Below are positions 14,889-28,628 of a DNA stretch of 29,300 nt, in pieces (the first letter of the stretch is position 1; the number at the start of each line of letters is the position of its first letter). Both the position numbers and the translations under genes were made by a program. Location: contig JBGTLG010000014.1 in the NCBI GenBank assembly GCA_041744215.1, positions 1-29,300 on the forward strand, written 5' to 3'. This stretch comes from Fimbriimonadales bacterium. GTDB taxonomy: Bacteria > Armatimonadota > Fimbriimonadia > Fimbriimonadales > ATM1. Below the pieces are notes generated by a model. That model saw only the letters and a program-made list of their open reading frames with translations, had not been told where the DNA came from and made no database searches.

Positions 14889-15920
14889 CTACATGATGTT
14901 GACGCCACGCGCGCCTTTCGTGATTTCGCCGATGATCCACGCTCGTTCGCCAGTTTCCACAAGATGATCGACAACAGCTTGCGCGTTCTCACTCGCGAGA
15001 ATGACGACCATGCCAACGCCCATGTTGAATGCGCGGTACATCTCATCATCCCCGATGCTGCCATCTGATTGAATCAATTGAAAGATGGTGGGCACAGGCC
15101 ACGTGTTGCGTTCGATAACTGCTCGGCTCTCCGCGCCCAGAATCCTTGGAATGTTCTCTACGAAGCCCCCGCCCGTGATATGCGCCAACCCCTTGACAGC
15201 GCTGAGAATCGGAAACAGCGGCTGGAGGTAACTGCGATGCGGTGTCAAGAGCGCGTCCGCCAAAGTCTGTTCGGAGTCGGGCATCGGATTGTCAATGCTT
15301 CGTCCGCCTCGCTCGAAGAGCGCTTTCCGAGCGAGAGAGAATCCGTTGGTGTGCAGTCCGTTGCTCCCTATCCCTAAGATTAGGTCGCCGTTGCCGATAT
15401 CGCCACGCGGCAAAAGGTCGCTCCGATCAACCACGCCGACGATCGTTCCGACCAAATCGAGTTCGCCCTCAACATAAACGCCCGGCATTTCCGCTGTCTC
15501 GCCACCAATCAGCGCGCATTCCACCGCACGGCACGCCTCGGCGCAGCCTTCGACGACGTCCGCGACCATTTCCGCAGAGATTCGTGAGGAAGCGAAGTAG
15601 TCGAGAAAGAAAAGCGGGCGCGCACCTTGAACGAGAATGTCATTGACGCAATGGTTAACAATATCGTGCCCAAGCCCGCGATACTTTCCAGCCATAGCGG
15701 CAACTTTCGTTTTCGTTCCAACTCCGTCGATGCTCGAAACCAGAATGGGATCGGCCAGATTCGGAAACGACGCCGAAAACAATCCACCAAACGCTCCGAT
15801 GTCGCCGAGGACTGACGGTGTGAATGTCGAGCGGACCGCTTCCTTGAAGGCGCGAAGCGCTCGGTTAGATTCGCCAATGTCGACTCCAGCGGTTTGGTAT
15901 GAGAGCCCTTGGTCGGACAT
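14889..15920 (-). CDS. purM: Phosphoribosylformylglycinamidine cyclo-ligase (AIR synthetase)
   Basis: SYQTAGVDI, DGVGTK, GGETAEMPG, SNGLHTNGFSL, HITGGG, FNMGVGM. Start placed at ATG 15920 (MSDQGLSY) rather than the ORF-track start at 16178. Confidence 0.96.
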   Translation of the reverse strand: MSDQGLSYQTAGVDIGESNRALRAFKEAVRSTFTPSVLGDIGAFGGLFSASFPNLADPILVSSIDGVGTKTKVAAMAGKYRGLGHDIVNHCVNDILVQGARPLFFLDYFASSRISAEMVADVVEGCAEACRAVECALIGGETAEMPGVYVEGELDLVGTIVGVVDRSDLLPRGDIGNGDLILGIGSNGLHTNGFSLARKALFERGGRSIDNPMPDSEQTLADALLTPHRSYLQPLFPILSAVKGLAHITGGGFVENIPRILGAESRAVIERNTWPVPTIFQLIQSDGSIGDDEMYRAFNMGVGMVVILASENAQAVVDHLVETGERAWIIGEITKGARGVNIM

Positions 15921-25849: not shown

Positions 25850-26803
25850 CTAACAATTCACACAATTCTCGATCTTCCCGGTGCTCCGAAAGACGGAAAA
25901 GATCCGCACGGTTTCCTCAGCAACAGCATCCTGCGCTTCGTCAGTGCTCGCGCCAATGTGGTGCGTGCAATAAACGCCCGGCAGCGACTGCAAAGCGCCA
26001 TCATATTCGCCTTGGGCAACCGCGGGCTCTCCATCAAAGACGTCTAAACCGGCGCGAATCCCTTTATCGCTGATCGCCCTAATCAACGCCGTCTGATCAA
26101 CCACTTCCGACCGGCTGGTGTTTACGAAGATGGCTCCTGGTTTAAGAGAATCGAAAAACGACGCGCCGATACAAAGCTTCGTCTCTGCGGTAAGCGAACA
26201 ATGCACAGAAACTACGTAGCTCTTTGCCGCAAGCTCCTCTTGCGATGAGCACAACTCGACACCCAGTGCCTTCGCCTGCTCTGGCGAAGTGTGCTTGCTA
26301 AACGCGACGACACTCATACCAAATGCGTGGGCAACAGGAATCATTCCTCTGCCAATAAACCCGAGCCCGATCAATCCAAGTGTCCTTCCACGCAAACCTT
26401 TCGCCTTCGAGAACTCCTTCTTGTTCCATCTGCCCTCACGCAACTCCGACACGTTTTCAGGAATGCGCCGATCGCACGACAAAATCAATCCCCACGCCAA
26501 CTCAACCACGGCCGCCGAGTTCTTTCCAGGGCAGTTTGCAACGCCAATCCCCTTTGCGCGCGCAGCATCAATGTCGATCGTGTTGTATCCGGCGCCGGCT
26601 CTTACGATCAACTTAAGCCCGTCCACCATATGCTCCGCCTGCACCTTCGTCGATCGAACAATCAGCCCTTCAGGTCGCTCACGCTCCAGCGCAGCAACGA
26701 GCGCGTCCTCTTTCAGGTCCGGATCAGATACCACGTCAAATCCGCTCGCAGTCAGGCCGTCGAGTCCAGCCTGCTCAAATTTATCGGCAACAAGCACTTT
26801 CAT
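25850..26803 (-). CDS. D-isomer-specific 2-hydroxyacid dehydrogenase (phosphoglycerate dehydrogenase-like, no ACT domain)
   Basis: LIVRSTKV, RAGAGYNTID, GLIGLGFIG, NTSR, LDVFDGEP, HHIGAST.EAQ. Confidence 0.9.
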   Translation of the reverse strand: MKVLVADKFEQAGLDGLTASGFDVVSDPDLKEDALVAALERERPEGLIVRSTKVQAEHMVDGLKLIVRAGAGYNTIDIDAARAKGIGVANCPGKNSAAVVELAWGLILSCDRRIPENVSELREGRWNKKEFSKAKGLRGRTLGLIGLGFIGRGMIPVAHAFGMSVVAFSKHTSPEQAKALGVELCSSQEELAAKSYVVSVHCSLTAETKLCIGASFFDSLKPGAIFVNTSRSEVVDQTALIRAISDKGIRAGLDVFDGEPAVAQGEYDGALQSLPGVYCTHHIGASTDEAQDAVAEETVRIFSVFRSTGKIENCVNC

Positions 26804-26843
26804 AAGACAGGATTTTAGCCGACGGCGTAGAATAAAGATTCAG

Positions 26844-27278
26844 ATGGCAAACCCGATCCTATCCCCTGTCTTCGCGGAATCCGGCAACACCCTCAACCGA
26901 GTGATCGACGGGTTCCCAGAGTCCGCTTGGGATTCACGCCTTACGCCGTCGTCCAAATCCGCCAAAGAAATCCTCGGGCACCTGACGATGGTTTACGCAG
27001 CGTACATCGCTCTGCTCGAAACAGGGCATGTGGATTGGGCTCGTTACGATCCCGCCGGTAAGTCGGTCGACGCACTAATTGCAGATTTGGGTGAAACGCG
27101 CCGCTTCGCGGTAGACGAAGCCAACGGCTCAGAAATGCCGCTTATTCATAGAGGCGCGCTCGAATACGTCGTCATGCACGAGATGTATCACCTCGGGCAG
27201 CTTACTCTGATAAGAAGCGAAGCGGAACCGGACTGGGACGCGGAAGCGATTTTTACGGGTTGGGTAACCCACCTATAA
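26844..27278 (+). CDS. DinB/YfiT-like (DinB superfamily) protein
   Basis: C-terminal 144 aa of ORF 26289-27278, from ATG 26844. KEILGHL and HEMYHLGQL give the His triad. Confidence 0.85.
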   Translation: MANPILSPVFAESGNTLNRVIDGFPESAWDSRLTPSSKSAKEILGHLTMVYAAYIALLETGHVDWARYDPAGKSVDALIADLGETRRFAVDEANGSEMPLIHRGALEYVVMHEMYHLGQLTLIRSEAEPDWDAEAIFTGWVTHL

Positions 27279-27291
27279 GTTCTCTACAAAC

Positions 27292-28470
27292 TTAACGCCA
27301 GCCATATGCGCCAAAAAGCTCAGGCGCAAGCAAGTCAGACTGCGTGTTGCCCGCAAGCGTAAATGCAAATCCGATTGGCGATGGCGGGTCGCTGCCGCGA
27401 TAATTGTATTGTGTGCCGCCCCAACGATTACCCGCCGCGACCAATTCGAAGCGCGTGTACTTCTGCGCGTTCAGATCGAACGCAGCGCCACCCAACAAGC
27501 GCAGCGCGAGGCCGTGCGAACCCGAATCCGTTCGAGTCTCGCCGTCAAAACGAACTTCGACAACCTGACCCTTTACGGCGGTCACCGTCGATTTCAGATA
27601 CGCCATCCGAACTTCGCCCTCAGAAAACGCGCGCGACTGACCGCGCACCGTGTCGACTAAGTGCGCCCGAGCCAGTCTTCGTATTAATGGACTCGGAACA
27701 AGAGTGTGCGCTCCCGCTTCAAACTTCGACGGCAAGAACTGCACCGCTTCTTCGCGCTTGAACCAAGCGAGATCCTGGTTCCATGCTTTGCCGCGCCAAT
27801 CTCTTGGCAGACTCGCATGAGGCAAATCCCGAACGTATTGGCGCAAGATCAAACCGCCGATCGGATAGAAGCGCTCGTCTCGCTGCAGTCGGCCCGTCCA
27901 TCCGCTGGGATCTTGCGGGAGCAGGCGCCGCGCCTTCGGCAGCTTGTTCCACTCTTCTAATCCCTTTTGCAAAGTGCGCGCGACGGGAGCAGCCTCGGTC
28001 GAGTTAATCGACGCGAGCAAAACGCCGCTTGGCGCGATGCAATAGATTCCTTGTTGCGATCCGCCTTTCGCTCCATAGTGTCCCTGCTTCGCGACATATT
28101 GGAAGAGTTGACACTCAGGGTCGTCGCCGCTTTGCAGGCGATAGACTTCGTCGGCGGCCGGCACGTAGTACTGCGCAAGCCGCCTTACGTTGCTGTCAGT
28201 CCAGACAAACTGCCTGGCTTTAACCCCGTTGTTTCACGTACAGGTCAGCGGATGCCCGTTCATGACCCAAAGCAGGATCGGCGCCTCCCGCTTGTTGGCG
28301 TCGAGCACCGCCTGCCAATACGTCGGGTACCAGGGAATCGTCATGAACTGCCGCTCGGCCTGGGTGGGCATGATGAAGGCGCGGAATTTGGCGAACGTCG
28401 CGTCCGTCAATTCCTCCGCCTGGGCGCATACCCCCAAGGCCAGCACAGCCAATAGAATCCGAAGTCTCAT
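27292..28470 (-). CDS. Probable selenoprotein: secreted thioredoxin-like protein, 392 aa, Sec (UGA) at codon 79 in a CxU motif
   Basis: ORFs 28234-28491 and 27292-28164 are in the same frame, separated only by TGA at 28234-28236. Read-through gives ...PILLWVMNGHPLTCT-U-NNGVKARQFVWTDSNVRRLAQYYVPAADEV.... Signal peptide MRLRILLAVLALGVCAQA from ATG 28470. A SECIS-like hairpin follows the UGA. Confidence 0.85.
28195..28224 (-). promoter_or_regulatory. Putative bacterial SECIS element
   Basis: mRNA after the UGA reads AACAACGGG-GUUA-AAG-CCAGGCA-GUU-UGUCUGG-AC-UGAC. It has a 7-bp upper stem, a G-first apical loop starting 24 nt after the UGA, and a lower GUUA/UGAC stem. Confidence 0.7.
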
Positions 28471-28628
28471 ACAAGTTTGAAGAGCCGCCATGCCGGCGAA
28501 GCAGGCAATCGCGGGAATCCTCCCGGATCCCCATTTTATATGATCGGCGTGATCCGCCGCAGATTGAGGGCGGACCTCGCCGGCTGCCGGATTCGGGTCC
28601 CGGGTCGGCGGGGCTCCTCGGTTTGTGG

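Follow-up and report, generated by a model that had tools for sequence, protein, structure and literature searches.

The question raised by the 29,300 nt stretch of contig JBGTLG010000014.1 analysed here (the window; Fimbriimonadales bacterium, assembly GCA_041744215.1) is whether two open reading frames (ORFs) on its minus strand, separated by a single in-frame TGA at 28236-28234, are two genes or one gene in which the TGA is read as selenocysteine (Sec). A preliminary description of the window had favoured one gene, proposing that a 78-aa segment with a signal peptide is joined across the TGA to a 313-aa continuation. From comparison of related sequences and from structure prediction we conclude that the TGA very probably encodes Sec and that the gene would specify one exported protein of approximately 43 kDa.

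The frame runs from an ATG at 28491 or 28470 to a TAA at 27294-27292, and the TGA is its one internal stop; there are no other stops or frameshifts. The read-through product is 399 aa from 28491, with Sec as residue 86 (U86), or 392 aa from 28470 (78 aa, U79 and 313 aa). The same frame, coordinates and Cys spacing were found again: the residues around the TGA are NGHPLT-C-T-U-NNGV, with the Cys two residues ahead of it. In the list of ORFs made with translation table 11, the frame is cut into an 85-aa ORF (28234-28491) and, from GTG 28164, another of 290 aa. Residue numbers given here (U86, Cys84 and domain limits) count from ATG 28491. However, ATG 28470 is probably the start, because in a locus that is 87% identical (L013) the six translated residues upstream of MRLRILL do not include a Met. 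The N-terminus, with a basic n-region, a hydrophobic core and an AxA site, resembles a signal peptide of the Sec secretion type. In the structural model described below it forms a helix at residues 2-19 followed by a low-confidence linker, and the homologues likewise begin with hydrophobic leaders. We infer from these features that the protein is exported.

A word-indexed protein search returned 309 relatives, 120 of which were listed. All but one of the listed proteins (119/120) begin after the position of the TGA, many of them at the Val or Met of NNG-V/M, and 118 of these are 290-347 aa and cover 68-78% of the query. The listed proteins that bear a name are called 'hypothetical protein', and among the 120 only P0006 (404 aa) spans the site. 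Cluster representatives were also searched exhaustively; 1585 of them matched at E ≤ 0.001, and 247 still did so at E ≤ 1e-30.

When genomes were scanned, using one genome per species, 154 relatives were found and the best 80 loci (L013-L092) were retained. These 80 are in metagenome-assembled genomes (MAGs) of Planctomycetota, of Fimbriimonadia and other Armatimonadota, and of Verrucomicrobiales, and the closest of them, the 87% identical locus, is in a Fimbriimonadales MAG. With tblastn, the read-through protein gave one alignment, in one frame, across residue 86 in 80/80 loci. The codon aligned to U86 is TGA in 79 of them and GCC (Ala) in the remaining one, L076. The motif around the TGA in the homologous loci is NGHPLxC[TV]-U-NNG, and the Cys84 column is at least 90% conserved (alignment A2). 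The spacing is C-x-U in 74 of the 79 TGA loci and C-x-x-U in the other five, which are of the Verrucomicrobiales type. An even sample of 151 genomes from the phylum gave 13 matches, 12 of which have a single TGA. A tblastn search had been put forward as a check on the selenoprotein proposal, and its outcome is that homologues align across the site with TGA in 79/80 loci; distant full-length homologues have Cys there. The motif is also conserved and common in some hot-spring communities, as many short metagenome contigs from other organisms, with 4-7 differences each, pile up at 28226-28300, a stretch that encodes LLW.MNGHPL.C.U.

These counts bear on whether the TGA is a nonsense mutation in a former Cys gene, or a sequencing or assembly error. 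The window is from a MAG, and in the runs compared the site is spanned by one contig only, which is probably the window's own source; the other contigs cover fragments or come from other organisms. However, no variants are seen in the spanning contig, whose depth is 17.7, the frame is free of other stops and of frameshifts, and the same TGA is present in 79/80 independent assemblies from three phyla and in two paralogues in the window's own genome. We regard the chance of a pseudogene or an error as negligible.

The alternative that the TGA is a true stop would leave a secreted peptide of 78-85 aa and a separate cytoplasmic protein of 290-313 aa, translated for example from GTG 28164. Gene calling with table 11 gives this result here and for 119 of the 120 listed homologues, and TGA is a normal stop in the window genome. 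Homologues that proved to be two genes in different frames would have favoured this arrangement, but at 80/80 loci both pieces share one frame, and conservation of the protein is unbroken across the TGA. The downstream starts chosen by gene callers vary between homologues (V or M at NNG-V, or M further on), and homologues that lack the TGA, including L076, are single continuous proteins. The predicted structure also bears on this alternative. An alignment of 52 read-through proteins was used as input for AlphaFold2, and the model of the read-through protein has a predicted local distance difference test score (pLDDT) of 94.1 and a predicted template modelling score of 0.89. Residues 47-186 form a thioredoxin fold in which the TGA falls between strand beta1 (72-77) and helix alpha1 (87-96), with U86 directly preceding alpha1. 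The thioredoxin fold is therefore complete only in the joined protein, and we consider two separate genes highly improbable.

One gene with a recoded TGA is also consistent with the structure searches. An exported cytochrome-c-biogenesis-related (DsbD-like) protein, represented by its C-terminal domain 3f9u_B, was the best VIA-align match to the thioredoxin-fold domain (Z 12.8, with 116 residues aligned at a root-mean-square deviation (rmsd) of 2.3 Å). Further matches were AGR3 (Z 11.3), DsbH (Z 10.1) and DsbD-gamma (Z 9.2), and Foldseek gave E 8.7e-4 for this domain. A profile search of PDB sequences with alignment A2 gave a single chance row, MarR, at E 1.2. Residues 196-399 folded alone gave a pLDDT of 94.5 and long antiparallel strands. 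Thus, both the thioredoxin-like fold and the large beta-rich C-terminal domain postulated in the preliminary description are seen, the fold spanning the TGA. For the C-terminal domain, the best VIA-align match was NspA (Z 6.7, rmsd 3.7 Å, 126 aligned residues), which is within the background of the tool, and Foldseek found no match at E ≤ 0.001. This lack of a structural match does not show the fold to be new. The motifs WNxDxAWF, DxVRG and GxRxG..N.R are invariant in this domain, and their polar and aromatic residues suggest a binding or catalytic surface.

Decoding of UGA as Sec needs dedicated machinery, and a search of the genome for sel genes had been proposed as a further check. The window genome (2.68 Mb in 42 contigs, 93% complete) contains selA (413 bits), selB (356 bits) and selD (339 bits), all above the curated cut-offs, and aragorn found a tRNA-SeC with anticodon tca on contig C41. 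The selD gene (C16:75837-76805, minus strand) has its own in-frame TGA and encodes a Sec-type selenophosphate synthetase, and selA lies about 6 kb from it at 82726-83784 on C16. Within the window, positions 15477-15653 (minus strand) gave a sub-threshold match to the selD family (19.6 bits), presumably a relative of the aminoimidazole ribonucleotide (AIR) synthase type and not a sel gene. Global reassignment of TGA was ruled out, as TGA terminates 406 of the 1154 long ORFs of the genome. Sec-type FdhA was not found in the genome using TIGR01553, which detected only a stop-free molybdopterin enzyme below the cut-off on C26. Thus, SelD and three copies of the family described here are the users of Sec identified to date in this genome.

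SelA was found in 46 of the 49 genomes that carry the selenoprotein gene. In the even phylum sample, SelA is present in 86/151 genomes overall and in 9/9 of those with the gene, and within the same order the gene is in 4/5 SelA-positive and 0/7 SelA-negative genomes, though in all of these counts the genomes are related and are not independent samples. The record carrying one locus, L080, is titled as a MAG of Glaciecola sp. (Gammaproteobacteria), in which SelA was not found, and this could be a mis-binned contig or a transfer.

A hairpin with a G in its loop had been predicted 24 nt downstream of the TGA as a selenocysteine insertion sequence (SECIS), and it was found there. The 66 nt from the TGA onward align without gaps in 80 sequences. 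If columns are numbered from the T of the TGA, the stem is formed by columns 19-26 and 30-37 and the loop by columns 27-29, and the hairpin occupies these columns in all sequences with a TGA. In the window the hairpin (28219-28198, minus strand) consists of a 7-bp helix, extended by two further pairs past a bulged A, and its loop is GUU. The G of this loop, at 28210, is 24 nt downstream of the A of the UGA, which gives a UGA-to-loop spacing of 23 nt, and the 38-nt core of the SECIS folds at -11.0 kcal/mol. The first base of the loop is G in 80/80 sequences and the second is U or G in 78/80. By cells, pairing is 88.5% in the core helix and 68.2% in the lower helix. When the partner strand was slid along the alignment, at most 42.7% of cells were paired, compared with 79.8% in the proposed register. 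The bacterial SECIS (bSECIS) model, as given in the legend to Fig. 2 of PMC13188914, has a loop of 3-9 nt, a stem of 4-16 bp, a G in the first two loop positions, a spacing of 16-37 nt and a minimum free energy ≤ -7.5 kcal/mol. Judged by that legend, the hairpin agrees with the model in loop (3 nt), stem (7-9 bp), spacing (23 nt) and energy (-11.0 kcal/mol). Two natural controls, L076 (Ala and no TGA) and a CxxC paralogue on contig C33 of the window genome (-0.9 kcal/mol), lack the hairpin.

The sequence of the stem, GCCAGRCRG-GUC-CGUCUGG, is specific to the family. As it encodes a conserved peptide, A-R-R/Q-S-V-W, conservation alone proves little, and synonymous codon choice is stronger evidence of selection on the RNA than the count of pairs. 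The first Arg of the stem is AGA or AGG in 61/80 sequences, compared with 7.0% of the 2825 Arg codons elsewhere in the same genes. The second is CGG in 54/54 (25% elsewhere in these genes), the Ala is GCC in 52/53 (38% elsewhere) and the Val is GTC in 75/78 (44.7% elsewhere). The closing pair is G-C in 37, A-U in 21 and G-U in eight of the 80 sequences. Where the second Arg codon (CGG) is replaced by CAG (Gln), the following Ser codon is TCT in 17/17 cases, while after CGG it is TCC in 25, TCT in eight and TCG in eight. The change from CGG to CAG is thus matched by the Ser codon TCT, a synonymous and compensatory change in the closing pair.

Full-length homologues without a stop include four with CxC (P0231, P0236, P0178 and P0191) and two with a lone Cys at the site (P0126 and P0161). 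The window genome itself has four members of the family, namely the window gene, two more copies with a TGA and one with no stop (Table 1). With Sec, Cys and other forms side by side, the family shows the alternation between Sec and Cys that is typical of selenoproteins. As CxxU occurs at five of the 79 TGA loci and CxxC in a paralogue from the window genome, the ancestral spacing would be CxxC/CxxU, and Sec looks like the occupant of the second position of an ancestral CxxC. Other residues at this position had been named as a possible sign of a nonsense mutation or sequencing error. Ala, Arg, Ser or Asp do occur there, in P0122, P0129, P0164, P0240 and P0182, but these are continuous, non-Sec relatives that show no sign of a nonsense mutation, which leaves the Trp of P0006. 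In the subgroup of L076 and P0122, Ala replaces Sec (ACT-A-GNG); the motif is otherwise kept and the hairpin is lost, while the genome with L076 still has SelA.

Some relatives carry additional domains. In P0124 (1541 aa), a Ser/Thr kinase, a transmembrane segment and Kelch repeats are followed by the module, which has Asp in the Sec column and no Cys. P0152 (720 aa) combines the part after the TGA with a pyrroloquinoline quinone (PQQ)/BamB-like beta-propeller, and P0178 (738 aa) is the module with a SecDF-P1-head-like addition. The redox-dead relatives and the kinase fusion suggest that the module also works as a ligand-binding unit.

Several observations weigh against the conclusion that the TGA encodes Sec in a functional selenoprotein. 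The structural model was built with Cys standing in for Sec. The Trp in P0006 is at the Sec site itself, though it is known from the protein sequence alone and, as TGG is at the Sec column in 0/80 DNA loci, would most simply be a table-4 gene call of TGA. The homologues with Ala, Arg, Ser or Asp indicate that the fold does not depend on a redox-active residue. In the two TGA-containing paralogues, on contigs C24 and C2, the hairpins are weaker (5 bp). As the columns hardly vary, the 79.8% of cells that are paired is barely above the mean of shuffled alignments (79.1%) and is attained by 29 of 500 shuffles. The covariation score is above all 500 shuffles and the Fisher test for the closing-pair codons has a nominal p of 2e-7, inflated by relatedness, and both figures overstate independence because the sequences are related. 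The fold energy of a single 81-nt sequence around the TGA, -22.8 kcal/mol, is not unusual (z = -0.18; equalled by 79 of 200 shuffles), so that the hairpin rests on comparative evidence. Finally, no conserved neighbourhood supporting a function was found around the gene; the largest cluster of flanking ORFs is present at 5/80 loci, and there is thus no operon clue.

Some of these points would also fit read-through without selenium, either by near-cognate insertion of Trp, Cys or Arg or in response to a recoding signal other than a SECIS. The Trp of P0006 is what such insertion could give, and the incorporation of selenium here is deduced from sequence. Against this, the loci lack TGG and distant homologues substitute Cys, not Trp. 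The association of the gene with SelA, in the phylum sample and within the order, and a hairpin that fits the SelB-type SECIS model also point to selenium, and we consider selenium-free read-through very unlikely. The analyses together establish a recoded gene, a family-specific SECIS, Sec machinery in the same genome and a thioredoxin fold with the recoded residue at the start of alpha1. Conservation of the TGA, the SECIS, the machinery, the Cys homologues and the fold all support the exported thioredoxin-like selenoenzyme of the preliminary description, with export predicted from the N-terminus.

The read-through protein matched no Pfam family and no NCBIfam family (release 20.0) at E ≤ 1, and seven other homologues without added domains also matched no Pfam family at this threshold. 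Table 1 of PMC13188914, a review from 2026, covers 119 families or subfamilies of prokaryotic selenoproteins, nearly all with Pfam or NCBIfam identifiers, and no row fits, although the few families that have only CDD or PANTHER identifiers lie outside the profile scan. The same table includes CxU families. Thus, while the C-x-U motif called unusual in the preliminary description is indeed the spacing at most TGA loci, it is not unprecedented among selenoproteins. No recognisably identical protein is present in the available parts of PMC12013277 (deep-Sep), PMC2398784 (GOS) or PMC4807772 (Planctomycetes genomes, Table S9). In the last two, the entries 'Unknown' and 'hypothetical protein GOS_A' (PMC2398784) and one 'hypothetical' candidate of Table S9 (PMC4807772) are given without visible sequences, and any of them could be the same protein. 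Full-text literature searches returned no description of the family, an Rfam scan of 28100-28300 found no family (three chance rows, E 2.6-7.6), and a search of the ESM Atlas with the homologue P0010 found only 'hypothetical protein' clusters, mostly from Planctomycetota and with no Pfam family.

The closest structural relatives, Thioredoxin_7, DsbD-gamma, DsbH and AGR-type domains (3f9u, 2ju5, 1vrs and 3ph9), have the same fold with the redox motif between beta1 and alpha1. DsbD-gamma and DsbH are extracytoplasmic, as the window protein is predicted to be. However, the resemblance to them is structural only, as the window protein has no sequence-level Pfam match (for example to PF13899), has C-x-U in place of CxxC, and has a C-terminal beta domain of about 195 residues fused to the thioredoxin fold. 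Sep15 and SelM share with the window protein the C-x-U spacing in a thioredoxin-like fold, with Sec second, and the likeness is one of motif spacing only. The window protein has no Pfam match to PF13192 or to Sep15/SelM, and its architecture and taxa differ from theirs. The SECIS of Sep15 is in a eukaryotic 3' untranslated region, unlike the coding-region hairpin seen here. In contrast, the bSECIS consensus (the bSECISearch model and the Escherichia coli fdh genes) is, like the window hairpin, a coding-region stem-loop just after the UGA with a small G[U/G] loop, from which the window hairpin differs in its family-specific sequence and lack of an Rfam match. Among named bacterial selenoproteins, the Trx7/PDZ domain-containing selenoprotein (NF041199), which has CxxU (PMC13188914, Table 1), is similar in its Thioredoxin_7-type name and in having Sec at the C-terminal position of the motif. 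The window protein differs from it in having no NCBIfam or PDZ match, mostly C-x-U in its family, and another second domain. By sequence, the window protein therefore belongs to no named family among those compared. It resembles other thioredoxin-fold selenoproteins that have a coding-region bSECIS in the way it would work, and it would represent a new, unnamed and widespread selenoprotein family within a known kind, the bacterial thioredoxin-fold selenoproteins, with a new architecture and mostly C-x-U.

Table 1. Features of the predicted selenoprotein gene in the window, and its paralogues elsewhere in the same genome (contig:positions)
Feature	Position	Strand	Basis
Whole selenoprotein gene	27292..28470 (alternative in-frame ATG 28491)	-	Frame and translation
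Predicted Sec-type signal peptide MRLRILLAVLALGVCAQA, probable cleavage after AQA	28417..28470	-	Read from sequence
In-frame TGA, very probably selenocysteine (U86/U79)	28234..28236	-	TGA column in 79/80 loci; Cys in distant homologues
Cys84 of the C-x-U motif, probably the redox partner of Sec	28240..28242	-	Column conservation
SECIS hairpin core	28198..28219	-	Folding, alignment, codon bias, compensatory pair
Extended SECIS region with weaker lower helix (alignment columns 9-46)	28191..28228	-	Pair count
Thioredoxin-fold domain, residues 47-186	27934..28353	-	AlphaFold2, VIA-align, Foldseek
C-terminal beta-rich domain, about residues 205-399	27295..27879	-	Model of domain alone, invariant columns
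TGA paralogue, 46% identity, motif of ACT-U-NNG or GCT-U-NNG type	C24:11745-12938	-	Own-genome search
TGA paralogue, 34% identity, motif of ACT-U-NNG or GCT-U-NNG type	C2:33814-34923	-	Own-genome search
Paralogue without stop, 25% identity, C-D-D-C with second Cys aligned to U	C33:8629-9609	-	Own-genome search

The genes around the selenoprotein gene in the window encode a 2-hydroxyacid dehydrogenase, a DinB-family protein, a rhomboid protein, YebC, PurF and a transporter of the sodium:solute symporter family (SSF), which are unrelated housekeeping functions. The DinB-family gene (26820-27278, plus strand) and the selenoprotein gene are convergent, their stop codons lying 13 nt apart, and the D-2-hydroxyacid dehydrogenase gene (25850-26803, minus strand) lies beyond it. 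A 329-aa ORF at 26289-27278 is mostly antisense overlap. A scan for promoters and terminators found nothing relevant near the ends of the selenoprotein gene.

We propose, with moderate confidence, that the protein acts as an extracytoplasmic thiol/selenol oxidoreductase. The UGA would be decoded by the genome's own SelA, SelB, SelD and tRNA-Sec, directed by the coding-region SECIS with its G-led loop 23 nt away. After export, the mature protein would have two domains, with Sec at the N-terminus of alpha1 in the place of the second Cys of a CxxC. A substrate that is oxidised or electrophilic may then bind to the C-terminal domain and be attacked by the selenolate of U86, after which a selenenylsulfide between U86 and Cys84 would form and be re-reduced by an extracytoplasmic reductant. 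Identification of a substrate for the C-terminal domain would reveal a new activity, since this domain lacks clear relatives among known structures.

Standard annotation pipelines split or truncate the gene, leaving 119 of the 120 listed homologues without their signal peptide and active site, and recognition of the family would mend the annotation of hundreds of genes (247 cluster representatives at the more stringent threshold) and enlarge the prokaryotic selenoproteome. A SECIS within the codons for A-R-R/Q-S-V-W is also a clean natural case of joint constraint on protein and RNA. A broader possibility, which we put forward tentatively and think rather unlikely, is that in Planctomycetota, Verrucomicrobiales and Fimbriimonadia (Armatimonadota) this family is a major client of the Sec machinery that has so far been missed. 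As it often occurs in several copies (three with a TGA in the 2.7-Mb genome studied here) and no Sec-type FdhA was found in this genome, it could help to maintain the Sec-decoding trait in these lineages. On this reading the two-domain module may be an extracytoplasmic device that recognises a specific ligand and acts on it with a selenolate, and redox-dead copies appear to have become sensor domains, as in the copy fused to the outer side of a transmembrane Ser/Thr kinase. The finding points to extracytoplasmic selenium-dependent redox chemistry in Armatimonadota and in bacteria of the Planctomycetes-Verrucomicrobia-Chlamydiae (PVC) group, whose selenoproteins have been little studied.

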